Shown here one piece after another: positions 117-64,000 of a stretch of DNA of 64,000 nucleotides. A model generated the notes under the pieces. That model saw nothing but the letters and a program-made list of their open reading frames with translations, did no database searches and was not told where the DNA came from. This DNA comes from Acaryochloridaceae cyanobacterium VAR_48_metabat_390 (GTDB lineage: Bacteria; Cyanobacteriota; Cyanobacteriia; Thermosynechococcales; Thermosynechococcaceae). The number at the start of each line of letters is the position of its first letter. Position 1 is the stretch's first letter. Where the stretch lies: positions 1 through 64,000 of the forward strand of contig JANPLU010000068.1 in the NCBI GenBank assembly GCA_031422435.1, in the 5' to 3' direction. Both the position numbers and the translations under genes were made by a program.

Positions 117-296
117 AGGATCATGGATTTAATAACCTCCAACATTGACCCTCACCCCAGCCCCTCTCCCAGAGCGGGAGAGGGGAGTAAGAATCTTGTC
201 CCCCTTCTCCCGCTCTGGGAGAAGGGGTTAGGGGATGAGGGAGTGCAAAGCACATCGCTTAAAACCAATTCTGTAAGTTATTTAATCCACGATCTT
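117..296. mobile_element. MITE-like element (~180 bp) with TA flanks and an internal C-rich/G-rich palindromic repeat
   Basis: Imperfect terminal IRs AGGATCATGGATTTAATAAC (117-136) / GTTATTTAATCCACGATCTT (277-296), 17/20 match. TA at 115-116 and 297-298. Internal CCCCTCTCCC..GGGAGAGGGG and CCCCTTCTCCC..GGGAGAAGGGG hairpins. Confidence 0.7.
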
Positions 297-1774: not shown

Positions 1775-2359
1775 GTGTTTTCTGTGGAGCAGAGTGCTTT
1801 AACGCCAGCTTATGCTGCTACGGTTTTTGATGCTCAAGGGATTAGACAGACCGTAATCTTGGAACCAGCAAAACAGTCTGATATGAGTGGTTCTTGGGTG
1901 TGCGACTGGCATAATCTCTGGAAAATGACCAATTTTGAATGTGAGGCCGTCATTAAGCTTTCCTTTGATGGAAAAACGAAGGGATTGATGCGTTACGGTT
2001 TATATCCTTACGATGGAAACCCTTCAAAATCTCCTGAGTATATAGAGATACAGAATCTTGAGGCGCTTGAAGGGAATACTAGAGAAGTAAACCCAGTAGG
2101 GTTTTGGCTCATTTGGTATGCCGTTCAGGTTGGTCTGTTTATCTGCGATGGAGACTCTAACGGTTCAGTCATCACTTTGGATGCTTTCGAATATAGGCGC
2201 TCCTACTATAGAGATAAGGTTAAAATGGATGAACTTGGGCAGACCAGACTATCACCAAGCGAGGATGGATATGCTTACAGGTTTACGGAAGAAGGGGCAT
2301 TGGCGTTCTGCTCAAGACTTGAAGATCGCTATGGGTTCCCAGCCTGTCTTAGCAGATAG
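1775..2359 (+). CDS. Hypothetical protein, possibly GNAT-fold acetyltransferase
   Basis: 194-aa ORF. The pattern YIEIQNLE...VGFWLIWYA...ITLDA...SYY resembles GNAT motif A/B organisation (inference). Confidence 0.55.
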   Translation: MFSVEQSALTPAYAATVFDAQGIRQTVILEPAKQSDMSGSWVCDWHNLWKMTNFECEAVIKLSFDGKTKGLMRYGLYPYDGNPSKSPEYIEIQNLEALEGNTREVNPVGFWLIWYAVQVGLFICDGDSNGSVITLDAFEYRRSYYRDKVKMDELGQTRLSPSEDGYAYRFTEEGALAFCSRLEDRYGFPACLSR

Positions 2360-2524
2360 CGATTCATGCTGGGAAAGTTTTGATGACGATATCGTCGCAG
2401 GATCTGAGCACGATATGAATCCTGTTGAGAGATATGAGTTTGTTCAGAAAAGAACTTACGGCAGCGGTAAAACCTCTGAGCGCACTTGAAGTCGAACATT
2501 TGAGAAGGCTGGTAACGTTAGAGA

Positions 2525-5080
2525 ATGGCAAAACTTACGTTCTCTCACCTTGCAAGCCTTCTCTACAGCGCTTGCAACGATCTTCGCGGCAGTATGGATG
2601 CCAGCGAATACAAAGAATACATTTTTGGCATGCTGTTTCTCAAGCGTGCTAACGATTTATTTGATCAGCGGCAGGCCGAGATTAGGGCTGAAAAAGCTGC
2701 TCAAGGTATGAGCGAGGCAGATATTGTCATTGAGTTGATTGACCGTGACAATTATTCCGGCAAGTATTTTTGGGTGCCGGAACGGGCGCGTTGGAATCAG
2801 GGTTGGGTTGAGCATGTTATTAAAGATGGCGAACCCAAGACAATCCATCATCCGGCGTTGAAACACGTTAAGGAAGAGGTTGGCAGCACCTTAAATAAGG
2901 CGCTTGAGGCCATTGAAGATGCCAATGTTGAAGCCCTACAAGACGTGTTAAAGGGCATCAACTTTAACCGCAAGATTGGTCAACGGACGTTGGACAATGA
3001 CACGCTGGCTGACTTTATCCAGAATTTTGAGAAGATTCCGCTCAAGGATGAGGATTTTGAGTTCCCAGATTTGTTGGGTGCTGCCTACGAATGGCTGATT
3101 AAGTTTTTTGCAGATTCTGCGGGCAAAAAGGCGGGGGAATTTTATACCCCTGCGGAAGTGGTGCGGATTTGTGTAGAAATCTGTGACCCCAAAAAAGGTA
3201 TGCGAGTATATGACCCAACGGTTGGGTCGGGCGGTATGTTGATTCAGGTACGGGACTATCTGCGCGAGTGCGGTAGCTCTGGCGAAGTGGGGCTGTTTGG
3301 TCAGGAGAAGATTGGCACCACCTGGTCGATTTGCAAGATGAATATGCTGCTGCACGGCATTTCTGACGCGGATATTCGTCAAGAAGATACGCTCAGAGAG
3401 CCTCAGCATTTGGATGAGAATAACAATCTCAGGCGGTTTGAGCGTGTGCTGGCAAATCCGCCGTTTAGCCAAAATTACATCAAAAAAGATCTCAAGTTTT
3501 CGGGGCGCTTTCCGGTGATGATGCCAGAGAAAGGCAACAAGGCTGACCTGATGTTTGTGCAGCACATGCTGTCTGTGCTGAAGCATGATGGACGATTGGC
3601 AACGGTAATGCCCCACGGGGTGCTGTTTCGCGGTGGTGAGGAACGGGCTGCACGCAAGCACTTTATTGAACAGGGCTATCTAGAGGCCATTATTGGTCTG
3701 CCCAGCAATTTATTTTATGGCACGGGCATTCCGGCCTGTATTTTGGTGATGAATAAGCAGGGTGCGGCAACCCGCGACCATGTGCTGTTTATCAATGCCG
3801 ATCGCGAGTATCGAGAAGGGAAGGCGCAAAATCATCTGCGGCCTGAAGATATTGACAAGATTGTCCACGCCTATCGGTCTGGGGTAGACATACCTGCCTA
3901 TGCGCGGCGGGTGCCTGTGGCAGAAATTGCGGCGGAGGACTACAACTGCAACATTCGGCGCTATGTCGATAATGCACCGCCACCGGAACCGCAGGATGTG
4001 CGCGCTCATCTTCATGGCGGGGTGCCTGTTGCTGAGGTTGATACCCTCACCCATTTCTGGGACAACTATGCAGAGCTACGACAAGACTGCTTTACGGTGC
4101 GCGACCCATCCCAACTGGACGCGGATCGCTTTGTAGATATTGCCCCTGCTATTAGCAATAAGCGCAATATTGCAGATTTTGTGACGCAGCACAGTGGCGT
4201 GGTGGCGCGGCATGGGCATTTTATGCAGCAGCTAGAGGACTGGTGGCAGGCAAATTTGCCTATTGTGGAGGCGCTGGCACCAGACCCAAAAAACCAGCAT
4301 GAGCAGTCTGGCAATGTGTACCGAATGCGGAGCCATTTGCTGGAGAGCATTGCGAAGGTTTTGGCGGATCAGACGCTTTTAACGCCGTTTCAGGTGCGGG
4401 GGGCGTTTGCGAACTATGTGGATGTGCTGAAGGCGGATTTTAAGTCTATTGCAGCGAGTGGCTGGGGGGCTGAGCTGATACCCGATGAGGAGATTTTGCG
4501 GAGTCAGTTCCCTGATGTACTAGAGGAGATGAAGCTGGCGCAGGTGCGGCTGACGGAGCTACAGGCGCTATTTGCGGCGGCGGATGAGGAGGATTTTGAA
4601 GATACGGATGACTGTGGGGTGATGGCGAGTGATGTGGTTAAGAGCAAGAAGGCTGAGCTGAAGGCGGCGAGGGGGCAGGCAAGGCTGTGCAAGCGCGACC
4701 CGAGTTTGGGGGACTGGACGAAGTATCAGTTTATGGCAGAGCAGTTGGAGGGGCAGTTGGCTCGCCACAAGCTGCTAGAGGATGAGGTGAGGGCGCTGAG
4801 GGCGACGATTAAGGGGGTTGAGAATAAGCGGGATGAGCTGGTGGCAAGGGCGCGACTAAAAATCTCGAAGGATGAGGCGCGAATGGTGATTGTTGCGCGG
4901 CTGCGTCGGGTGCTGATGGAGACCTATGAGGCTTATCTACGGGCGGATCAACGGGCTTGTGTAAGGGCGATCGCAAATCTATGGAGCAAGTACGCGGTAA
5001 CGACGAAGACGATTGAGGCGGAGCGGGATGCGGCTTCGGCGCAGTTGAAGGCGTTTTTGGTGGAGTTGGGGTATGAGTGA
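2525..5080 (+). CDS. hsdM: Type I RM modification subunit (long, 851 aa)
   Basis: [22 protein letters not shown]-terminus, [18 protein letters not shown] motif I, NPPF motif IV, extended helical C-terminus. Confidence 0.95.
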
Positions 5081-6353
5081 GTGGATTGATGCAACGGTTG
5101 CTGATGTAACTAAGTACCAAAAGGCTGGAGGAACTCCTGTTGCCACAAATCCTGATTACTATGGTGGAGATATCCCGTTTGTAGTCATTGAGGACATCAC
5201 AAAAAGTTCACGTTTTTTAGAAAAAACTGAAAATACTCTTAGCGGTCAAGGTCTTTTAAATAGTGCTGCATGGCTTATCCAAGAACCTCATATCTTGTAT
5301 TCAATGTATGCGACTGTAGGCAAGCCAATAATCAACAAGATTGCATGTGCGACAAACCAAGCAATAATTGCCCTTAAAGAAAATGAGCTAGTTGATCAAG
5401 AATTTCTTTACTATCAACTTCTTTTTATAAAGCCATCAGTACACAAATTTACTGCTCAAACAACTCAGTCAAACCTGAATGCTGGTGTTGTCAAACGGTT
5501 GCCTATTACATACCCAAAAAATAAGGCCACGCAAAGAAAAATTGTTGAAATTCTCTCAACCATTGACCAAACGATCGCCCATACTGAAGCCCTCATCCAG
5601 AAATATCAGCAAATCAAAGCGGGGTTAATGCACGACCTGTTTACCCGTGGCATAACCTCCGATGGTCAGCTCAGACCCCCCAGAGAACAAGCCCCAGAAC
5701 TTTATGGAGAGACGGCGATCGGTTGGATTCCGAGGGAGTGGGATATTATTCCGTTAGGTCGCATTTCTGACATAACATCAGGGGTAACTCTTTCATCAAA
5801 AATTTCACTCGATCAAACGTTTTCAGTTCCATATCTAAGAGTTGCAAATGTACAAGATGGATATTTAGATTTAAGCGAAATTAAAGAGATAAAAGTAAGT
5901 CAGAATACTCTTCAAAATTTGCGTCTAGAAACTGGCGATGTCTTAATGAACGAAGGCGGAGATTTTGACAAACTTGGAAGGGGAACCGTCTGGCAAGGTG
6001 AAATTGAAAACTGTATTCACCAAAACCACGTATTTCGAGTCCGAACAGACAGACTACTACTCAGACCGTTTTATCTTGCTTACTGGTCTGAGTCAGACTT
6101 TGGAAAAAGATACTTTATTTTAAGTTCAAAACAGTCAACAAACTTAGCATCAATCAACTCTACTCAATTAAAAGCATATCCAATCGCTACTCCAAACCAA
6201 GAAGAACAAGAAAGAATAGAAAATAGAATCAATTCAGCTAATAACAAAATTAAAAATCTGAAAACAGAAATAGAAAAGCTCCAAAAACAAAAATCTGGCC
6301 TAATGCAAGACCTCCTCACTGGCAAAGTTCCCGTCACCATCAGCGAATCGTAA
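5073..6353 (+). CDS. hsdS: Type I RM specificity subunit (two TRDs)
   Basis: Overlaps the hsdM stop (ATGAGTGA). Conserved helical spacers [12 protein letters not shown]...GWIPREW and [13 protein letters not shown]. Confidence 0.95.
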
Positions 6354-6451
6354 AGCGCAGGCATAGCAGAAGCTAGCGGTGGCATCCAATTAGCCCACCC
6401 ATCTAATCAAGAAGTAGAATAGGTTTAATCTCTCTCCCCGTGTTTTGAGCA

Positions 6452-6727
6452 ATGGACGCAACCACTATAGAACGACAAAACCTAATTCAAGCCGTCGGCA
6501 CCCTACCCGACGAAAATCTTCCTGAGCTTGCCAGTTTTCTAGACTATCTTCGCTACAAATCAGATCGCTCAAAAGCACCTGACCAAAGTGCCTCCAGCTT
6601 TTTATATGCAATAGCAGGCTTAGGTAGCTCTGGACAGCAAGACATTTCAGAGCGCGACGAAGAGATCCTACTTCAAGACATCGATCCCATTTATGGCTGG
6701 CAGCTTAAATCGAGCAATCCTGCATGA
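6452..6727 (+). CDS. Putative antitoxin (partner of the truncated PIN toxin)
   Basis: 91 aa with LPDENLPELASFLDYLRYK and IAGLGSSGQQDISERDEEIL, resembling cyanobacterial VapB-type antitoxins. Its stop overlaps the ATG of a PIN-like start. Confidence 0.6.
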   Translation: MDATTIERQNLIQAVGTLPDENLPELASFLDYLRYKSDRSKAPDQSASSFLYAIAGLGSSGQQDISERDEEILLQDIDPIYGWQLKSSNPA

Positions 6728-6792
6728 CCGCAATACTCGACACCAGTTTCTTAATCTCATTTCCACGGAGCGACAGTCTATGGCGAAATTAA
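6724..6792 (+). pseudogene. Truncated PIN-domain (VapC) toxin N-terminus
   Basis: ATGA-coupled to the upstream ORF. Translates MTAILDTSFLISFPRSDSLWRN*; ILDTSFL is the first PIN beta strand with its catalytic Asp. Confidence 0.6.
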
Positions 6793-7013
6793 TTGTGCGA
6801 AACATTCATGAAGCCGTTATCAAAGCCCTCAAAATGCGGACAAGTCAGCATGGTGTTAGTGCAGAAGCAGAGCATCGCAAAATTTTGGAACAAGCATTGC
6901 TCAAACCTCAGCGAAAGTCTTTTGCAGAAGTCTTGAGCCAGATCCCCAACGTTGGCAATGATGCAGACTTTGAGCGAATCCAAGACGACAGAGCCAGCAA
7001 TGAATTTGATTGA
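6780..7013 (+). CDS. FitA/StbC-like ribbon-helix-helix antitoxin
   Basis: MAKLIVRNIHEAVIKALKMRTSQHGVSAEAEHRKILEQAL is a typical FitA-like RHH sequence. Confidence 0.85.
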   Translation: MAKLIVRNIHEAVIKALKMRTSQHGVSAEAEHRKILEQALLKPQRKSFAEVLSQIPNVGNDADFERIQDDRASNEFD

Positions 7014-7416
7014 TACCAACGTCATCAGCGAACTTCGCAAAAAAGACAAAGCCAACCCTGGCGTTAAGCAATTTTTTAAGCAAAATGCTGAGCGTAAAGC
7101 CCACCTATTTATCAGCGTTATCACTATCGGAGAACTGCGCCGAGGCGTTGAAATTATTCGGTATCGGGGCGATCAGCTACAAGCCGATATCCTAGAAGCC
7201 TGGTTACAGACCGTATTGGATGACTACGCTAACCATATTCTAGAATTCACGGCAATTGACTCCCAAATTTGGGGGAGGCTGCGCGTCCCGCATCCTGAAA
7301 ATGCCCTAGACAAGCAAATTGCCGCCACTGCACTTACCTGCGCCTTAACCCTAGTTACCCGAAATATAAGTGATTTTGTAAGCACAGGGGTTCCACTCAT
7401 CAACCCATTTGATTGA
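7000..7416 (+). CDS. vapC: VapC/FitB PIN-domain toxin
   Basis: LIDTNVISELRK, ISVITIGELRRG, DKQIAATA, LVTRNISDF motifs. Overlaps the antitoxin. Confidence 0.9.
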   Translation: MNLIDTNVISELRKKDKANPGVKQFFKQNAERKAHLFISVITIGELRRGVEIIRYRGDQLQADILEAWLQTVLDDYANHILEFTAIDSQIWGRLRVPHPENALDKQIAATALTCALTLVTRNISDFVSTGVPLINPFD

Positions 7417-7453
7417 TATTGTAATCTGGAAGCTAAAAGTTACAAACGAGGCT

Positions 7454-7470
7454 ATTATACAAAGTATAAT
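7454..7470 (+). promoter_or_regulatory. Palindromic operator overlapping the -10 box of mazEF
   Basis: ATTATAC-aaa-GTATAAT perfect 7-bp IR containing TATAAT, ending 18 bp upstream of the mazE ATG. Confidence 0.6.
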
Positions 7471-7487
7471 TCTAGTCCAGGTAGCTT

Positions 7488-7739
7488 ATGGATATCCAAC
7501 TCAAAAAATGGGGCAACAGCTTAGGGCTGCGGATTCCCCACCAACTTGCCAATAGCCTAGGCGTAGATGAAACATCAACCCTAGAACTCCTCGAAGTCGA
7601 GAACACCCTCGTACTCCGCAAAAAACAAACGCCCATCACCCTAGATGAAATATTAGAGAGCATCCCAAAGGATTTTCAATATCCAACGGACGTACAAGAC
7701 TTTGTTAACAGTTCAGCCATAGGGCAAGAACTGCTCTAG
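7488..7739 (+). CDS. mazE: AbrB/MazE family antitoxin
   Basis: KKWGNSLGLRIP signature. Confidence 0.9.
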   Translation: MDIQLKKWGNSLGLRIPHQLANSLGVDETSTLELLEVENTLVLRKKQTPITLDEILESIPKDFQYPTDVQDFVNSSAIGQELL

Positions 7740-7759
7740 CTAGCGGAACCGAGCAAACC

Positions 7760-8098
7760 ATGAATATCCAGCGCGGAGAAATTATCCGCATCAACTTAAA
7801 GCCCACCACTGGCAGAGAGCAAACCGGAGAAGCGCGCCCCTGTCTAGTTTTAAGTCACACTCAGTTTAACCAAGTCAGAAATGGCATCGTCATTGTTTCC
7901 CCCATTACCAGCACCATAAAGCCCGAAATCAAAACCCTCATTTCCATCCCTGACGGCTTTAAGATATACGGCTCCGTCATTGCCGAACAAATCCGCACCT
8001 TAGATCTCAGTCAACGCTGGTGGAAAAGCACAGGAGAACATCTGCCAACGGAATTTATAGACGCTGTAGTTGCCACATTGAATCTTCTGATTGCCTGA
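7760..8098 (+). CDS. mazF: PemK/MazF family toxin
   Basis: RGEII..L.PTTGREQ...RPCLVLS, SPITS, EQIRTLD motifs. Confidence 0.9.
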   Translation: MNIQRGEIIRINLKPTTGREQTGEARPCLVLSHTQFNQVRNGIVIVSPITSTIKPEIKTLISIPDGFKIYGSVIAEQIRTLDLSQRWWKSTGEHLPTEFIDAVVATLNLLIA

Positions 8099-8125
8099 GA
8101 CGCACCGCTGACAAATGAGTTGCCC

Positions 8126-11100
8126 ATGTCTGAATACACCGAAATCGAACAACCCTTCTTACAACAGCTCACTAGCCTAGGCTGGACGAGTATCGATCAA
8201 GGTGAAGGCATCCCGCAAAACCCCAGCAAAAGCCTGCGGCAAACCTTTCGCCAGTGGCTCTTACCTGATGTCTTCTGCACAGCAGTAGCAGCCCTTAACA
8301 CCGCTGCTTGGGGCCAACCCTGGCTCACCCCCAAGCAGCTCCAAGACCTACAAGACCAAATTCTTCGCCAACCCAACCGCACCCTGCTAGAAGCCAACGA
8401 AGCCATTCAAAAGCTATTGTTCAAAGCCCAAGTTGACACCAACGAAGTCACAGGCGAACAAGACCCCGTCGTTAAACTCATAGACTTCGCCAACCCCCAA
8501 AACAATCAATTCCACGCCATCAACCAGTTCCGCATCGACACCCCAGGCTGCGTCAAGCCGTTCATCATCCCCGATATAGTCCTGTTTGTAAACGGCATTC
8601 CTCTTGTCGTCATAGAGTGCAAAAAAGGCAGCACAAACTGCGCCAACCCCATGCAAGAAGCCTTTGAGCAGCTCCAGCGCTACATGAACCAGCGCAAAGC
8701 CACCCGCGCCCAAGGCTTAAAAGAAGGCGAACCGCGCCTATTTCATACCAACCTGCTGCTCATCCGCACCTGTGGCCTAGAAGCAGACTACGGCACCCTC
8801 ACCTCCGGTCAAGAGCATTACTTCCCCTGGAAAACACAGTGGCCTCACGACGATGCCGCAGCCCAAAATATGAACCCGCAACAGCAGCTCATCAGCGGCA
8901 TGTTAAATAAGCCAAACCTGCTGAACATCCTGCGTACCTCCACCGTTTTTATGGATACCGATAGCGGCTCCCGTATCAAAGTGGTGTGCCGCTACCAGCA
9001 GTTTAGAGCCGCAGGCAAAATTGTAGAACGCCTTCGCAACGGTAAAACCCAAGCCGAAAAAAGCGGCGTAGTGTGGCACACCCAGGGTTCCGGCAAAAGC
9101 CTCACCATGATATTTATGGCGCGAATGCTGCGTGCCGCCCCAGATCTGGGCGACTATAAAATTGTGCTCATCAACGATCGCACCGATCTCGAAGACCAGC
9201 TCACCAAAACCGCCACTCTCATCGGCGGACGCGTCAACACCATCGAAAACACCCGTAGCCTGCGCACTCAGCTCTCCACCGACAGCTCAGATATCAACAT
9301 GGTGATGGTGCATAAATTTCAGCAGCGCGAAGAAACCCTTTCCCTCAAAGTGGCTGAAGCCCTGGGCACCTATCAAACCATGCCTTCCGGCAAAACCTTT
9401 GGCGTGGTGAATAGTAGCGATCGCATCGTCCTCCTCATTGACGAAGCCCATCGCACCCAAAGCTCAGACTTGGGAGACAACATCTTTGAAGCCTTCCCTC
9501 AAGCCGCGCGGATCGCCTTTACAGGCACCCCCCTCATTACCGAGCGCCACGGCGAAAAGCAAACCCATAAACGCTTTGGCGAGTATGTAGACACCTACCG
9601 CCTCATGGATGCGGTCAACGACGGCACCACCCTACAGATCCTCTACGAAGGCCGCACCGCAGACGCAGCCCTCACCGATAAACACGCCTTTGAAACCGCC
9701 TTTGAAGACTTGTTCCAAGACCGTAGCGCCGAAGAACTGCTCGCCATCAAAAAGAAATACGGAGCCAGTGGCGATATTCTAGAAGCCGAACAGCGCATTA
9801 ATGCCATTGCTATCGATCTAGTGAATCACTACATCGCGCATATTTTGCCCAACGAGTTTAAGGCACAAGTCGTCTGCCATTCCAAACTTGCCGCAGTCCG
9901 CTATCAGACCGCCATCGAACGCGCATTGAATCAGCGGCTAGAAACCCTCAAGGCATTACCCAAACCCGATAAAGCCCTCATTCAAAAAATTGCCTTCTTA
10001 AAAGCAGCCGTAGTCATTTCCAGCGATGGCACCAACGAAGCCGCCTACGTGACCCAATCTCGTAAACAGGCCAAAGCATGGAATGCCGTCGATAACTTTT
10101 GCAAACCCTTCAACCCAGAAGACCCTGACCAGCAGTATACAGGCATCGCTTTTTTAATTGTGTGCGACATGCTGCTCACGGGCTTTGATGCCCCCATCGA
10201 GCAGGTCATGTACATCGACAAAAAAATTAGAGAGCATACATTATTGCAGGCGATCGCCCGTACCAACCGCATTAGCCAAGGCAAAAAACGCGGCTACGTG
10301 GTGGACTACATCGGCCTAGCAAATCATCTCACCGAAGCATTAACCCTTTACGCCGCCAGCGACGAGCAAGCCGAACTGGCACTAGGCTTAAAAAGCATCA
10401 CCTCAGAAATGCCCGTCCTAGAAGAACGATATCAACGCTTGCTGCAATTATTTTCAAATCGCAACGTCAAGGAAGTCGATCGCTTCGTCCAAGGCAAACT
10501 GCCCACTGTTGAGACCGATGCCATAGTCGTGAATAATGCGGTTCGCCTATTAAAAGACGAGAAAATCCGTGCTGACTTTGACGTGTACTTCAAAAAGTTT
10601 TTGATGAGCCTAGATATCATCCTGCCCCACCCAGCCGCTCATCCCTATCGCGTCCCGGCTAAACGCTTCGGGTATATTTTACGGGTTGCCAAAGAACGCT
10701 ATAAAGATACCAGCCTAAACTTTGGCGATGCGGGACAAAAAGTCAAAGACCTAATCAACGAGCATCTAATTAGCTTAGGCATTAACCCCAAAGTACCGCC
10801 CATTGAGCTACTCGCCGATGATTTTATGGCCAACCTCAGTAAACATGCCGCAGGCAACCCAGAAGCAAGAGCCAGCGAAATGGAGCACGCTATCCGTAAG
10901 CACTGCACCGTGCATCACGATGAAGACCCAGCCTTTTACAAAAGCCTCGCCGAGAAAGTAGAAAACCTAATCGATCAGCATCAAGACCAGTGGGAACAGC
11001 TCGCAGAAGCCCTAGAAAAACTTCGTCTAGAGGCGAAGGCAGGTAGACAAACCACAGAAGAAGGCATGAGCAAAGAAGCCACTACCTTTTATGCTCATAT

Positions 11101-11389
11101 TGCAAACGAAGCCTTTGAGAAGGGCGAAGTCCCAACCGAGGCAAAAGCCAAAATGAGGGTATTAATGGAAGCGATTGTAGATACTTTGCAAGACAGTATT
11201 GGCAGTATCGATTTTTGGACGAATGCGGACAAGCAAAAGAAAACCCGCAGCCAGATTAAAACAGCATTGACCCTCACCGGAATTCAGCAATTGAAAGAAA
11301 ACCGAGAGCGCGTTGCAGTTGAAATCATGAAGTTGGCAAAAAACCGCCATGATGCCTTACTTCGGAGAATCGGGGAGAGCAAAAAATGA
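8126..11389 (+). CDS. hsdR: Type I RM restriction subunit
   Basis: PDIVLFVNGIPLVVIECK nuclease motif, HTQGSGKS Walker A, DEAH, FTGTP, MLLTGFDAP, QAIARTNR. Confidence 0.95.
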   Translation: MSEYTEIEQPFLQQLTSLGWTSIDQGEGIPQNPSKSLRQTFRQWLLPDVFCTAVAALNTAAWGQPWLTPKQLQDLQDQILRQPNRTLLEANEAIQKLLFKAQVDTNEVTGEQDPVVKLIDFANPQNNQFHAINQFRIDTPGCVKPFIIPDIVLFVNGIPLVVIECKKGSTNCANPMQEAFEQLQRYMNQRKATRAQGLKEGEPRLFHTNLLLIRTCGLEADYGTLTSGQEHYFPWKTQWPHDDAAAQNMNPQQQLISGMLNKPNLLNILRTSTVFMDTDSGSRIKVVCRYQQFRAAGKIVERLRNGKTQAEKSGVVWHTQGSGKSLTMIFMARMLRAAPDLGDYKIVLINDRTDLEDQLTKTATLIGGRVNTIENTRSLRTQLSTDSSDINMVMVHKFQQREETLSLKVAEALGTYQTMPSGKTFGVVNSSDRIVLLIDEAHRTQSSDLGDNIFEAFPQAARIAFTGTPLITERHGEKQTHKRFGEYVDTYRLMDAVNDGTTLQILYEGRTADAALTDKHAFETAFEDLFQDRSAEELLAIKKKYGASGDILEAEQRINAIAIDLVNHYIAHILPNEFKAQVVCHSKLAAVRYQTAIERALNQRLETLKALPKPDKALIQKIAFLKAAVVISSDGTNEAAYVTQSRKQAKAWNAVDNFCKPFNPEDPDQQYTGIAFLIVCDMLLTGFDAPIEQVMYIDKKIREHTLLQAIARTNRISQGKKRGYVVDYIGLANHLTEALTLYAASDEQAELALGLKSITSEMPVLEERYQRLLQLFSNRNVKEVDRFVQGKLPTVETDAIVVNNAVRLLKDEKIRADFDVYFKKFLMSLDIILPHPAAHPYRVPAKRFGYILRVAKERYKDTSLNFGDAGQKVKDLINEHLISLGINPKVPPIELLADDFMANLSKHAAGNPEARASEMEHAIRKHCTVHHDEDPAFYKSLAEKVENLIDQHQDQWEQLAEALEKLRLEAKAGRQTTEEGMSKEATTFYAHIANEAFEKGEVPTEAKAKMRVLMEAIVDTLQDSIGSIDFWTNADKQKKTRSQIKTALTLTGIQQLKENRERVAVEIMKLAKNRHDALLRRIGESKK

Positions 11390-12093
11390 ACGCCCGCCGT
11401 GTCCGAGATATCGAATATCACCTCTTGCCAGGAACCGATCGCAAAACCACTGATATTGTGATCGAGCGCAATGGCATCATCGCAGTGCGCCCCCCGAAAA
11501 ACCTTAGTCCAGATCGAGTCGATGCATTAGTAGACAGCAAACGGATGTGGATTTACCGCAATCTAGCTGAGTGGCGTGACTTAAATGCAACGGCAGTCGT
11601 GCGTGAATGGGTCAATGGCGAAACATTTCTCTACTTAGGTCGTGCCTATCGCTTATCGCTGGTTTCTGACCAATCTTGCGATCTAAAACTTAACGAAGGA
11701 CGATTCTGCTTAAATCGAACCTTACTCGATCAGGATGGCTCTAAGAATGCTAGAAGAGCCTTTGAAGCGTTCTATGCCGAAAAAGGGCGCAAATGGATCG
11801 GCGATCGCGCAACCTATTTTGCCCCAAAGGTAGGGGTCAAACCCGCTGGCGTAACGGTCAAAGACTTGGGCTATCGTTGGGCTAGCTGCACGTCAAGCAA
11901 CGGACTTGCCTTCCACTGGAAAACCATGATGGCACCGCCAAAAGTTATTGATTACGTGGTCGTGCACGAACTTTGTCACATCCACTATCGCAATCATTCA
12001 GATGCATTCTGGAACGAGATTGATAAAGTGATGCCGGATTACCGCGAGCGTAAAACGTGGTTAAAGCAGCATGGTGCAGGACTGGATTTATAA
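11386..12093 (+). CDS. YgjP/DUF45 (M48/SprT-like) metallopeptidase family protein
   Basis: RWASC and DYVVVHELCH..NHSDAFW HExxH motif. ATGA-coupled to hsdR, a common type I RM companion. Confidence 0.9.
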   Translation: MNARRVRDIEYHLLPGTDRKTTDIVIERNGIIAVRPPKNLSPDRVDALVDSKRMWIYRNLAEWRDLNATAVVREWVNGETFLYLGRAYRLSLVSDQSCDLKLNEGRFCLNRTLLDQDGSKNARRAFEAFYAEKGRKWIGDRATYFAPKVGVKPAGVTVKDLGYRWASCTSSNGLAFHWKTMMAPPKVIDYVVVHELCHIHYRNHSDAFWNEIDKVMPDYRERKTWLKQHGAGLDL

Positions 12094-12286
12094 GCTCCAA
12101 TTAATGAATCGAGCGAACCCTCCAAATGCGCTTGTGAGTTCTTTTGCAACAGGAGGCGATCGCCTCAATCTTCAGAATTTGTAATAAAAACGAGGCTATA
12201 AAGGCTCTAGTGTAATAAGTTAGGTGACTTTTTATCATTTAAGCATCGTTAACAAAACCGCTTAGCCCTAGAACTGGAAGTTTAGA

Positions 12287-13006
12287 ATGAGTAGCAATTT
12301 AGCCGTCAAGCTGCGTGAGGGAACTAAAAAATCTCACACGATGGCCGAAAACGTTGGATTTATCAAATGCTTTCTCAAAGGAACCGTTGAGAAAAATTCT
12401 TACCGTAAGCTGGTTGCCAATCTCTACTTCGTCTACTCGGCGATCGAAGCAGAAATGGAGCGCAACAAAACGCATCCCATTGTGTCTAAGTTTTACTTCT
12501 CTGAGCTAAACCGTAAGCAAAGCCTAGAGTCAGACTTAGCGTTTTACTACGGCTCTAACTGGCGAGATCAGGTGGCACCTTCTGCCGCTGCTCAAGTCTA
12601 CGTCAAGCGTATCCATGAGATTGGTGAAACTGCACCAGAGCTTTTAGCGGCTCATTCTTATACTCGCTACATGGGTGACTTGTCCGGTGGTCAAATCCTT
12701 AAAGGCATTGCAGTACGCGGCATGAACCTTGCTGAAGGTGAAGGTACTGAATTTTATACCTTTGACCAAATCTCTGATGAGAAGGCATTTAAGGCCAAGT
12801 ATCGCCAGTCCATGAACGATCTCAACCTTGACGAAGCAATGCAGGATCGCATTGTCGAAGAAGCAAACGATGCCTTTGGTCTCAACATGAAAATGTTTAT
12901 GGAGCTAGAAGGCAGCTTGGTGAAGGCGATCGGTCAAATGGTTTTCAATGCACTGACTCGCCGTCGCGTCCGTGGCAGCACCGACGAACTCGTGACCGCT
13001 GAGTAA
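12287..13006 (+). CDS. ho1: Heme oxygenase (biliverdin-producing)
   Basis: LREGTKKSHTMAENVGF, HSYTRYMGDLSGGQILK. Confidence 0.95.
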   Translation: MSSNLAVKLREGTKKSHTMAENVGFIKCFLKGTVEKNSYRKLVANLYFVYSAIEAEMERNKTHPIVSKFYFSELNRKQSLESDLAFYYGSNWRDQVAPSAAAQVYVKRIHEIGETAPELLAAHSYTRYMGDLSGGQILKGIAVRGMNLAEGEGTEFYTFDQISDEKAFKAKYRQSMNDLNLDEAMQDRIVEEANDAFGLNMKMFMELEGSLVKAIGQMVFNALTRRRVRGSTDELVTAE

Positions 13007-22396: not shown

Positions 22397-22413
22397 GGCC
22401 GTAAGGGTCATTA

Positions 22414-22577
22414 GACCTCTTGCATCAATCTTAGCCCCCTCATCCCTTTCTTGTAGCCCAAAGGCTTTACCCTTCTCCCACGAGGGGAGAAGGGCTATTC
22501 CGGCTCCCCTCGCCCGTTCTGGGAGAGGGGCTGGGGGAGAGGGGCTGGGGGAGAGGGTCATATTAGTACAAGCGGTC
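22414..22577. mobile_element. MITE-like element (~164 bp) with TA flanks
   Basis: TA-GACCTCTTGCA ... TACAAGCGGTC-TA imperfect terminal IR. Internal CCCTTCTCCC/GGGGAGAAGGG hairpin and a tandem GGGAGAGGGGCTGG duplication. Confidence 0.7.
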
Positions 22578-61580: not shown

Positions 61581-62759
61581 TCAAAATCGAGCGAGACTTG
61601 CTGTCAGTCGATCAAATCGGTATTGACTAATAGTTCCTTCCTTAATTTTTTCAATTGCCTCCTCAATGACCTCAAGGGGTACGAGGAACCACTCTTTCGG
61701 CTTCACTGGCATGTCAAAGCGATCCTTCAGTTCTAAATCTAATCGAGCGCTGCTAAAAAACTTCTGAAGCAGTGCTTCTAGTTTCTGGCGATTGAGATTC
61801 GACAGTTTGAAAGTGGCGACGATTTCTACGTCTGCCAGCAGATAGGTGGGGTCTTTTTTAGCGTTGGCAATTCGGTTTTTTACGTCGCCTCCGGTTACGC
61901 CAATCTTGTGAATGACAGATCGGTTTTTGGCAATGAAGGGATGATCAGACTGGCTCCTGAGTACGTAAATGTAGCCCGTTGGTAAGTCGTCTGCTGCTTC
62001 AGCCTGAGAAAAAAGAGGGCCAAAGTCTGGATTGGTGATGCGGCGGCTGGCTTTGTCTTTGTTAAGGGCACGTTGGAGCGATCGCAGCAGTAAATCGCTC
62101 TCGGTAGCGTTGTCATAAATCACCCGCAGCCTCCGGTCTTGCCGCCCATAGTCGCTCACAAATGGCTCACCCATTTCGGCTACCATCACTTTCTGCCCAT
62201 CAAGGATAAACAGGTCGCCTGGGTTGACTGCCGCATTGTCTTGATATTTCAGGGTTTGCCGTTCCCCCGTTTCTAACTGGCTCTGCACTTGGGTGAAGAT
62301 AGGTCTGAATACGTCGAAGTCTTTGCAAGAAGTACGCTGGGCGATTTCCTCTGCGGCTTTAATTTCGCTGCGCGACCTTACATGGGTAAGCTGGGCAACA
62401 TCGTTTTCTGGATTCGTATGGATCTCAAGAGCAGCCAGTAGTTCGTCATCGGTGAGATCCGCTGTCGCTAATTCGATATCGTCGCTAGCATCTAACAAAC
62501 AATGGGAGTCTAACGGTTCCAAGATGCCGCGACATTCTTCAGAGTCGCGTAGGCGATCAAGCCGCACCGCATAAAGCCGCTCGAAGATATCGCGGTCTTC
62601 CCCGTGCTGGGGAAATCTGCCCTGTTCTTCTACAAACCGCTCAATCTCTTCAAACCCTGCGATAATTCGCTCCTCAGTAGCTGATCGACCACTACTTTTT
62701 TTCGCCTGAGCAAAGTCGTCAAGTTCTAACCTTAGTTCGTCGAGATCCATCTCAGTCAT
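61581..62759 (-). CDS. YeeC-like protein with C-terminal T5orf172/GIY-YIG domain
   Basis: GYIYVLRS...HKIGVT, RIANAKKDPTYL, LE..L..FF, EWF. Start overlaps the helicase stop. Confidence 0.82.
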   Translation of the reverse strand: MTEMDLDELRLELDDFAQAKKSSGRSATEERIIAGFEEIERFVEEQGRFPQHGEDRDIFERLYAVRLDRLRDSEECRGILEPLDSHCLLDASDDIELATADLTDDELLAALEIHTNPENDVAQLTHVRSRSEIKAAEEIAQRTSCKDFDVFRPIFTQVQSQLETGERQTLKYQDNAAVNPGDLFILDGQKVMVAEMGEPFVSDYGRQDRRLRVIYDNATESDLLLRSLQRALNKDKASRRITNPDFGPLFSQAEAADDLPTGYIYVLRSQSDHPFIAKNRSVIHKIGVTGGDVKNRIANAKKDPTYLLADVEIVATFKLSNLNRQKLEALLQKFFSSARLDLELKDRFDMPVKPKEWFLVPLEVIEEAIEKIKEGTISQYRFDRLTASLARF

Positions 62760-64000
62760 AGCGTCCTTCATCTTTGAAGCGGACAAATGCAGCAGCGCCC
62801 TCAGCCATTCGCTTCTCCCATGCATCGGGTGAATTGGATGAGGGCAGCCGTCCCCTTTCCTTTTTGAATTTAACAGCCCGCATGGCGAGGGCTTTGGCTT
62901 CTTCTGGTGTCAGGTTTGTCCACTTGGCAGCAATTACTGCAGCCACCTGCCGCAATCGCTCTTCGCTCATAGATTTGGCGAGAATGGCGTAGGCTTCGCC
63001 AAAGGGATTGATGCGATCAATCAGATCCATATCCAGCTCTGTGACGGATAGGGCAAACTGACGTACCCCGTCGATGAGGGCGGTGTTTTTTGCCGCTTCG
63101 CCATTACTAAGACCGATGGCATCGGGGTTGGCGGTGTAGGCTCCACTCGCCTCGTTTACGGTTTGCTTGGCTTGTTGAACAAGGTTTAGAGCAGCGATCG
63201 CATGTTGCCGTACCGTTTCTTGATCTTCTTCGTCTAAATTCGGGAATTTCTCTTTGACGATTTTGCCCATGCGAACCTGGGTCAGTTCTTCGGGGACGAG
63301 TTCTTCGTCGAAGAGACCGCGCTCGATTGTGGGTTTGTCTTGGACAAAAGCTGTCACCAGTTCGGTCAAGTCTTCGCGGCAGATGCGCTCGGCCTGTGGG
63401 CTTTTAGGTTCGGCTAGCCCTTTAATTTCTAGTTGAATTTGCCCCGTCGTGGGATTGACACCCACATTGCACTTGAGCGGATTGTAGCCGTCTTCGCCGT
63501 AGTCGTAGCCTGGGGTGGGCTGATTGTCGGGGCACTTGGGTTTGAACTCGAAGCGTGGTGCAAGAACCTGCTCCATTAGCAGGCTGGCGGCAATGGCTTT
63601 GAGGGTATCGTTTACCGCCTCAGCGACGGCGGCTTCGGTGGCATCGGGTTCGGCGATCAGGTTGGTGAAGCGGGCGCGGGTTTTGCCTGGTGCATCGCGG
63701 GTGGCGCGACCGATGATCTGGATGATCTCCGTTAGGCTGGAGCGGTAGCCAATGGTCAGGGCGTGTTCGCACCAGATCCAGTCAAAGCCTTCTTTTGCCA
63801 TGCCGAGGGCGATGATAATATCGACGCGATCGCGGTTGTTTTTATGGGCGGGGTCTTTGAGGGCGGTGGCGACTTTATCGCGCTTGGTGGGGTCATCGTC
63901 TACGAGGTCGGCAATTTTGAGAATTTTGCCGTCGGTGGTTTTGACGAGTTGAAATCCCGTTTCGGGTTCTGTGCCCTGCCATTCGCCCAGTTCTTCGATG
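62752..64000 (-). CDS. YeeB-like SF2 helicase, 3' part (frame open to the window end)
   Basis: Frame is open from 63999: IEELGEWQG...IADLVDD...DIIIALGMAKEGFDWIWCEH (motif V) and QIIGRATRD (motif VI). Confidence 0.85.
   Translation of the reverse strand, partial: IEELGEWQGTEPETGFQLVKTTDGKILKIADLVDDDPTKRDKVATALKDPAHKNNRDRVDIIIALGMAKEGFDWIWCEHALTIGYRSSLTEIIQIIGRATRDAPGKTRARFTNLIAEPDATEAAVAEAVNDTLKAIAASLLMEQVLAPRFEFKPKCPDNQPTPGYDYGEDGYNPLKCNVGVNPTTGQIQLEIKGLAEPKSPQAERICREDLTELVTAFVQDKPTIERGLFDEELVPEELTQVRMGKIVKEKFPNLDEEDQETVRQHAIAALNLVQQAKQTVNEASGAYTANPDAIGLSNGEAAKNTALIDGVRQFALSVTELDMDLIDRINPFGEAYAILAKSMSEERLRQVAAVIAAKWTNLTPEEAKALAMRAVKFKKERGRLPSSNSPDAWEKRMAEGAAAFVRFKDEGRYD

Follow-up and report, generated by a model that had tools for sequence, protein, structure and literature searches.

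A likely silent-site scar of repeated break repair flanks exchanged restriction cassettes in an Acaryochloridaceae cyanobacterium and most other cyanobacterial lineages tested

Local strand asymmetry beside DNA breaks is already known from eukaryotes. At human meiotic double-strand-break hotspots, where mutation is strand-asymmetric, the forward strand is single-stranded to the left of the break, and C>N and A>N changes, with peaks of C>G and A>G, are reported in the flanking 2 kb (Hinch et al., 2023; PMC7615360). In replication GC skew, the leading strand is G-rich and the sign switches at oriC and ter; the irregular skew of cyanobacteria has been attributed to their replication mode (PMC7198777), and genomic islands have been reported near GC-skew switch sites, of which Cyanobacteria have many (Du et al., 2011; PMC3148964). 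Here we describe a type I restriction-modification (RM) operon at positions 2525-12093 of a 64,000-nucleotide stretch (the window; contig JANPLU010000068.1, positions 1 to 64,000) from the assembly of Acaryochloridaceae cyanobacterium VAR_48_metabat_390 (GCA_031422435.1, hereafter G000). Every gene of the operon lies on the + strand, and the silent sites of the genes on either side of hsdS, which encodes two target recognition domains (TRD1 and TRD2), are skewed in opposite directions. The skew is likely a scar of repeated break repair in the flanking genes of this cyanobacterium and of most other cyanobacterial lineages tested. In the literature searched, we found no description of polar silent-site skew flanking variable cassettes, and no bacterial equivalent of this size for break-flanking strand asymmetry.

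The locus shares with the human hotspots a sign flip at a central site, an effect on the strand that resection would expose, a scale of 1-2 kb and the prominence of A>G and C>G (PMC7615360). It differs from them in being bacterial, in that no programmed nuclease or binding motif was found and the breaks are a reconstruction of ours, and in its reset silent-site composition, its inclusion of T>G and its weak C>T. With replication GC skew it has in common the excess of G over C, little T-A skew and a terminus-type sign; unlike that skew, it is local (gone by 3-4 kb), recurs at many loci, inside genes and on plasmids, and is unaccompanied by contig-level skew. The independent replacement of TRD1 and TRD2 via central and flanking conserved regions resembles that of type I hsdS in Helicobacter pylori (PMC3077401), and the main text of that report on domain movement contains neither "skew" nor "G-rich". 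As in Du et al. (2011; PMC3148964), foreign DNA is linked to skew switches; that study, in the sections cited here, uses 100-kb windows, involves neither polarity nor silent-site analysis, and treats switches as insertion hotspots or as island-borne, whereas at this locus the skew lies in the native flanks and spares the cassette. Recombination has been reported as only slightly raised beside accessory gene clusters, with no strand-specific bias, in an account whose cited sections do not mention cyanobacteria (PMC11185547).

At four-fold degenerate sites, the last 750 nucleotides (nt) of hsdM (4325-5074) contain 80 G, 5 C, 17 A and 14 T, and the first 1650 nt of hsdR (8126-9775) contain 32 G, 166 C, 33 A and 29 T. 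Relative to baselines of genome-wide codon-family usage, taken from 3211 open reading frames (ORFs) called by script, the synonymous G+T deviation is +0.33 at the end of hsdM (208 sites, z 9.7), -0.25 at the start of hsdR (475 sites, z -10.9) and -0.24 in mazE (69 sites, z -4.0). Gene z-values are overdispersed (standard deviation, SD, 1.9), so that the effect is better expressed against the per-gene SD of the deviation (0.058 over 2793 ORFs), as about 5 empirical SD. Within hsdM, synonymous G skew is near 0 where the gene starts and climbs to +0.9 at its 3' end, and cumulative synonymous skew across the operon rises from ~3000, reaches a single maximum at 5354 inside TRD1 and declines to ~12000; among the 84 switch points of the assembly, none is stronger than this one in hsdS. 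Intergenic DNA between the skewed genes of the locus has the same sign, at only +0.045 to +0.10. The features of the operon are as follows (aa, amino acids).

2525-5080, + strand: hsdM, 851 aa, with Pfam N6_Mtase and HsdM_N.
3000-5080, + strand: left arm; the + strand, here running toward hsdS, has G-rich, C-poor silent sites, most strongly at 4325-5080.
5073-6353, + strand: hsdS, 426 aa, with Pfam Methylase_S; centre of the skew switch.
5081-5549, + strand: TRD1, AT-rich and unskewed.
5550-5741, + strand: central conserved region of hsdS; first part weakly C-rich, last ~40 nt before TRD2 G-rich.
5742-6278, + strand: TRD2, replaced in relatives.
6279-6353, + strand: C-terminal conserved region of hsdS, C-rich.
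6452-6727, + strand: 91-aa ORF without a Pfam match, C-rich, in common with the related genome G001.
6780-7013, + strand: FitA-like ribbon-helix-helix antitoxin, by Pfam.
7000-7416, + strand: PIN toxin (vapC cargo), by Pfam; absent at this place in G001.
7488-7739, + strand: mazE, C-rich.
7760-8098, + strand: mazF, C-rich.
8126-11389, + strand: hsdR, 1087 aa; right arm, in which the + strand is C-rich, most strongly at ~8276-10525.
11386-12093, + strand: YgjP/M48 metallopeptidase, within which the skew fades.

The products of hsdM, hsdS and hsdR all carry the Pfam domains expected of a type I RM system. In the right arm it is the - strand that is G-rich, and there the - strand is the one running toward hsdS.

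The original prediction, made from the sequence of the window, had described the last ~800 bp of hsdM as G/T-rich and mazE and early hsdR as C/A-rich between 4300 and 9800. The opposite composition of these segments was confirmed, with the strings it quoted located at 4393, 5057 and 8328, and the skew at degenerate sites stands well above background. The contrast is one of G versus C: T shows no overall enrichment, its gain being confined to two-fold sites, and the final 800 nt of hsdM have a T-A skew of -0.04. The skew also reaches further than had been proposed, from ~3000 to 12000. Amino-acid composition, raised as a possible full explanation, does not account for the pattern, since the signal lies at synonymous sites and is absent from 45 non-cyanobacterial homologues. 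Of the miniature flip proposed inside hsdS, the G-rich stretch before TRD2 is present, as judged in this sequence from 9 synonymous sites (z 2.5), and is positive in all 11 cyanobacterial homologues and in 33 of the 45 others. The proposal that the skew converges on each variable segment did not hold, as the skew does not flip again ahead of the vapC and mazEF cargo, nor on either side of the variable ORF at 1775-2359. The locus has a single kilobase-scale switch between G and C, with hsdS at its centre, and in addition the small flip ahead of TRD2. The ORF at 1775-2359 (194 aa, no Pfam match) is itself missing at the same place in G001 and G002 (G001, G002, G003 and so on denote the other genomes compared).

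Comparison with relatives shows that segments at the switch are being replaced. In G001, TRD1 is 99.5-100% and the segment 4700-5100 is 99% identical to the window, other parts of the operon are 75-98% identical, and TRD2 and the cargo are different; at the place of mazEF, nothing is in common beyond 99 nt at 75%. G002 differs from the window at both TRD1 and TRD2, and the operon was likely shared laterally, given that its identity to G000 is 89% in hsdM and 74-86% in core genes. Among contigs from sequencing runs X4, X5 and X7 (X8 gave one contig, and X9-X15, covering a small share of the stretch, were left out), those of X4 and X5 replace 5742-6278 (537 nt, TRD2) with 522 different nt. A clean replacement of TRD1 separates X5, from a G001-like strain, from the G001 locus (469 nt versus 430), with borders corresponding to window positions 5080 and 5550; the X4 and X7 contigs have loose ends at the TRD1 border. 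TRD1 and TRD2 are therefore replaced independently between conserved regions, with the same borders across relatives, and TRD swapping is under way in this lineage. These swap borders coincide with the skew switch at the hsdS of the window and at four other loci, where, across nine same-genus genomes, the unskewed middle is the part that is missing or replaced; the expectation that sign switches would coincide with strain-variable segments was thus borne out. At L115:6264-8018, conspecific differences are clustered in tracts of hsdR, 16 of them falling between 7842 and 8018 in one instance, a distribution that imported recombination tracts would be expected to leave.

Phase variation of hsdS by inversion or repeats found no support here: a repeat search of 2000-12500 found no long near-perfect repeats and no invertible or direct-repeat architecture, and the 11 locus proteins scanned with Pfam include no recombinase family and a single HsdS. 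No dedicated diversifying machinery was identified. The skew is a footprint beside TRD swapping, and the evidence does not extend to a causal role in it.

The same pattern recurs through the assembly. Switch points called at |z| of at least 3.5 comprise 39 convergent and 45 divergent sites; the stronger ones are convergent in 5 of 6 cases at |z| of at least 5 and in 4 of 4 at |z| of at least 6. Strong convergent sites include the hsdS of the window, a second hsdS, the TRD regions of two MmeI-like genes, a type ISP gene, CHAT-TPR and NACHT-HEAT genes, a 15-kb polysaccharide cluster and a type I-B Cas module; C88 (lytB/uvrA), among the top four switch sites, has no evident cassette. When cassettes were defined blind to skew, by a third-position A+T of at least 0.70 (91 cassettes, 155 flanks), 110 of the 155 flanks were skewed toward the cassette, 32 of them above +0.12 and none below -0.12, and the mean flank skew was 0.056 against a null mean of 0 (SD 0.006). 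Flank skew is 0.078 within the first 300 nt and has decayed to about 0 by 6-8 kb, in line with the predicted decay with distance from exchanged segments. It is also independent of gene orientation, which had been proposed to be unable to explain the pattern: at a threshold of 0.66 A+T, genes pointing toward cassettes average +0.039 and those pointing away +0.032. Transcription-coupled asymmetry was rejected, as the sign does not follow gene orientation. Skew is no longer autocorrelated at 3-4 kb (at 4 kb the covariance is about 0), contig-level skew is absent (mean deviation within 0.04 in the 24 largest contigs), and no skew toward contig ends was found (123 of 240 positive). Replichore GC skew, which would be constant over hundreds of kilobases with two switches, was accordingly rejected. 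We are highly confident both in the reality of the skew and in its link to exchanged segments. A second such site spans the end of the window.

62752-64000, continuing to contig position 64854, - strand: DEAD/ResIII helicase gene, over which the + strand is G-rich toward the TRD of an MmeI-like gene beyond the window.

The interval from window 61581-64000 to G000:C68:67987 holds an MmeI-like type IIL system with helicase, DUF4351 and T5orf172 genes, and is the second-strongest convergent switch in the genome.

The kilobase-scale pattern is found in particular hosts. For this operon family, all 11 cyanobacterial loci (the window among them) have a long-range index of 0.32-1.16, and the 45 non-cyanobacterial loci range from -0.38 to 0.19; 7 of the 80 operon-family loci, with incomplete hsdM ORFs, and L002 were left out of one comparison. 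The cyanobacterial copies occupy two separate parts of the hsdM tree, both skewed, and two changes are needed on that tree (FastTree, topology support uncalculated). Unrelated hsdS loci were picked before their skew was seen, as the best-scoring matches listed with room for flanks (60 from 150 listed, and 20 for the cyanobacterial family f2). In the class of the window, 36 loci were usable; 33 of these are convergent, z exceeds 3 in 25 and lies below -3 in 1, while z>3 was reached in none of the 10 usable hsdS loci from other classes of the phylum and in none of the 50 from non-cyanobacteria, of which 11 fall below -3 (unnormalised index). Loci that were one-sided, collinear or too AT-rich had been dropped (4 of 40 in the class, 10 of 20 in other classes); because kin are not independent, these locus counts overstate significance. 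Unrelated type I families with other gene orders are skewed as well, with weak or one-sided cases at L117, L121, L125, L127, L128, L130 and L133. L121 and L133, from genus g8 (2.5-2.6 Mb), are HIP1-rich, with native-like hsdS composition and little skew.

G000 carries 3855 copies of GCGATCGC, labelled HIP1 (PMC5101192), in its 3.7 Mb. Family f2, which is HIP1-poor and probably consists of picocyanobacteria, judging from PMC5101192, has a mean index of 0.02 over 17 loci, none above 0.2 (3 of 20 loci were dropped, as was a Nostoc plasmid). Full-length RecB matches occur in 3 of 3 family-f2 genomes, and no RecB-type match was found in G000 or in the skewed genomes G026, G030, G038 and G042; G016 has a weak RecB/AddA-like match. 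Among 80 metagenome loci, all five whose HIP1 density is 3.9 per 10 kb or more are skewed, as are two short HIP1-free contigs, and one locus at 2.8 HIP1 per 10 kb is without a left arm. Plasmids are also skewed, with indices of 0.50 on Synechocystis pSYSX and 0.54 on an Oscillatoria plasmid. Haloarchaea are polyploid, and polyploidy alone was rejected as a cause, given that three haloarchaeal plasmid loci (n = 3) are flat. Short-range skew (<~75 nt) of the same polarity does occur at TRD borders in non-cyanobacteria (L001-L080; hsdM codons 826-851 and the hsdS conserved regions), being positive at hsdM codons 826-840 in 41 of the 45 homologues and after TRD2 in 2 of them, and may come partly from ribosome-binding sites or shared ancestry. 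Cassette exchange by itself, as the original prediction had it, is not supported as a sufficient source of the kilobase-scale skew, since non-cyanobacterial copies of the operon with variable cargo spacing lack it.

The G-richness of the strand running toward the cassette may be the mutational footprint of repeated break or gap repair there during homologous exchange, a reading to which we give about an even chance. A heterologous cassette would be cut or lost on replacement by incoming DNA or by another chromosome copy; 5'-to-3' resection would then lay bare a single strand on each side, the + strand to the left and the - strand to the right, repair synthesis would proceed inward from the two 3' ends, and lesions on the exposed strand, or errors in the new strand, would put G there. 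Without RecBCD, the 3' tails would probably be long-lived, and G000 has no replichore skew to mask the mark. Selection for new specificities would route the ancestry of the flanks through many such events, so that the G bias could accumulate. What is observed is the polarity, the kilobase decay, the match between switches and swap borders, the range of hosts and the asymmetry of substitutions: the sign flips at the site, the G-rich strand is the one whose 3' end points at the cassette, and the decay is on the kilobase scale of a resection footprint. A polar footprint tied to cassette exchange, as first suggested, is thus the best reading of a skew that is orientation-independent, decaying and switching at replaced segments.

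The substitution spectrum of the G-rich strand can be compared with the C>N and A>N changes of the human hotspots: A>G and C>G are raised about fourfold and C>T 1.5-fold, C>A shows no asymmetry, and T>G is raised too. G is up and C down in 24 of 24 contexts tested, most in C_G. At four-fold sites (3250 paired sites), the ratios are 3.4 for A>G/T>C, 4.3 for T>G/A>C, 4.0 for C>G/G>C and 1.1 for C>T/G>A, with the same ratios about 1 in core genes; these rates assume reversibility, and the C>G ratio follows from composition under the model. At two-fold sites, where estimates need no such assumption, A>G/T>C is 4.2 (95% 3.2-5.6) and C>T/G>A 1.4 (1.1-1.9), or 4.4 and 1.5 when balanced for orientation. 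Raw triplet parsimony was discarded as biased by G-rich composition and distant outgroups. Plain cytosine deamination, as a form of the strand-biased mutation of single-stranded arms that had been offered as an example of the cause, does not fit a C>T asymmetry of only ~1.5-fold beside ~fourfold A>G, T>G and C>G, and a single-stranded-DNA deamination signature was rejected, with C>T not dominant and T not enriched at four-fold sites. G000 has ComEC and MutL, and its PD-(D/E)XK proteins are stand-alone only. Searches of G000 gave no match to endonuclease V, for which Synechococcus elongatus is also without a match.

Several points weigh against a break-repair footprint. The break, resection and mutation steps are reconstructed from sequence alone, and the rate estimates assume stationarity and pool pairs of unequal divergence. 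G000 has no match to a Y-family polymerase, which leaves no evident means for the translesion route suggested at human hotspots. Intergenic skew, at +0.045 to +0.10 between the skewed genes of the locus and +0.012 near cassettes overall, is weaker than a neutral mutational process predicts; weak switch points show no convergent preference (39 versus 45); one of the 36 class loci, L262, is significantly divergent; and a 7-kb block with a G-rich + strand (L089:2388-9090; G000:C14:12387-19089) has no adjoining AT-rich cassette. Across lineages, HIP1, the absence of RecB and ploidy are confounded. In four-fold triplets, G losses number 179 against 157 expected and gains 82 against 106, mostly in one pair, and this excess of recent G loss leans toward fixation bias.

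Fixation bias, or recombination drive, is the main rival: G-rich arms pointing 3' toward the cassette would recombine or persist better, and G alleles would hitchhike with successful cassettes against mutation. The recent G losses fit it, as do the four-fold G+C of skewed regions (0.63-0.64 versus 0.57), the shift of amino-acid usage along with the skew, and the short-range skew of like polarity at TRD borders of non-cyanobacterial homologues. By our own calculation, pure fixation bias would give ~2.3 for both two-fold ratios, and the unequal turnover of the sites, faster at purine than at pyrimidine two-fold sites, argues against it. So do the enrichment in every context and the lack of an oriented motif beyond codon composition: 300 codon shuffles of the two arms gave no Chi-like, G-run or G-quadruplex enrichment among 8 patterns (no unbiased k-mer search was made), with GG-tetrads at or below shuffles and GGG at 32 versus 28.5 and 75 versus 71.8, the exception being GGG and GGGG ~2 SD above shuffles in the hsdM arm. 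Two-fold triplets fit stationarity, and polarised third-position differences within species are balanced (11 to G and 10 from G; n = 30, the third positions among 40 differences listed, of ~110, between conspecific strains). On this evidence we consider fixation bias unlikely, while still a serious competitor; if it were true, the polarity of homology arms would matter for cyanobacterial engineering.

Local replication geometry, in which forks without a fixed origin stall or meet at foreign cassettes and the toward strand is mostly leading, would account for the terminus-type sign, the absence of contig-level skew in G000 and the flat family f2, and is in keeping with the irregular GC skew of most cyanobacteria, some with several DnaA-free origins (PMC7198777). 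With autocorrelation gone by 3-4 kb, however, it would need origins every few kilobases, and skew of up to +0.9, switches inside single genes at TRDs and the presence on plasmids make it improbable. We rate lower still, as distinctly improbable, damage to single-stranded donor arms by cytosine deamination during natural transformation. ComEC is present, HIP1 raises transformation efficiency (PMC13756078) and the skew tracks HIP1-rich loci, and T exceeds C at two-fold sites; against this, if either strand can be taken up, both arms should be hit alike and the effects cancel, barring a difference between 5' and 3' arms; no asymmetry is weaker than that of C>T, and four-fold sites show no T enrichment. 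A codon or expression effect, or inheritance from donors of other codon usage, is hardly credible and, for the kilobase-scale signal, already largely refuted. In non-cyanobacteria, the surplus of G over the final 11 codons of hsdM and its shortage over the opening 15 of hsdR could stem from the ribosome-binding site and translation start, but a gradient within one gene, opposite signs in co-oriented genes, orientation independence, absence from the 45 non-cyanobacterial homologues, the two cyanobacterial groups in the tree and the skew of unrelated families with other gene orders all speak against it.

Returning to break repair, we tentatively propose, with rather less confidence than the footprint itself, that HIP1-bearing, RecBCD-less cyanobacteria may have a previously undescribed, break-centred and strand-polar mutagenic recombination pathway at hypervariable cassettes, one that would write G onto the invading strand over kilobases, would be, more than replication, the source of irregular cyanobacterial GC skew, and would map exchange hotspots. 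The cassettes in question would, equally tentatively, be restriction specificity domains, CRISPR modules, polysaccharide clusters and conflict-system effectors. The pattern offers a testable cause for the irregular skew, a means of reading recombination hotspots from a single genome sequence and a handle on DNA-end processing in RecBCD-less cyanobacteria, and a direct test is possible because the model strain Synechocystis PCC 6803 carries it on pSYSX.

Some minor features were also recorded. DUF4351 genes lie in the skewed flanks of five different variable loci (L081, L086, L087, L090 and L091). The L089 block comprises PBS lyase HEAT, HTH and GGDEF-EAL genes on both strands, adjoined by phycobilisome linker and CpeS genes, and is duplicated, inverted, in G009. 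A dispersed repeat of ~135 bp (window ~22409-22543), with dozens of 76-96% copies in the same-genus genomes G001 and G003, may by appearance be like a miniature inverted-repeat transposable element. A second dispersed repeat of ~100 bp (window 147-241 and G000:C68 ~67834-68080) has many copies in G000, G001, G003 and G007, and a 140-bp element stands at several G000 contig ends.

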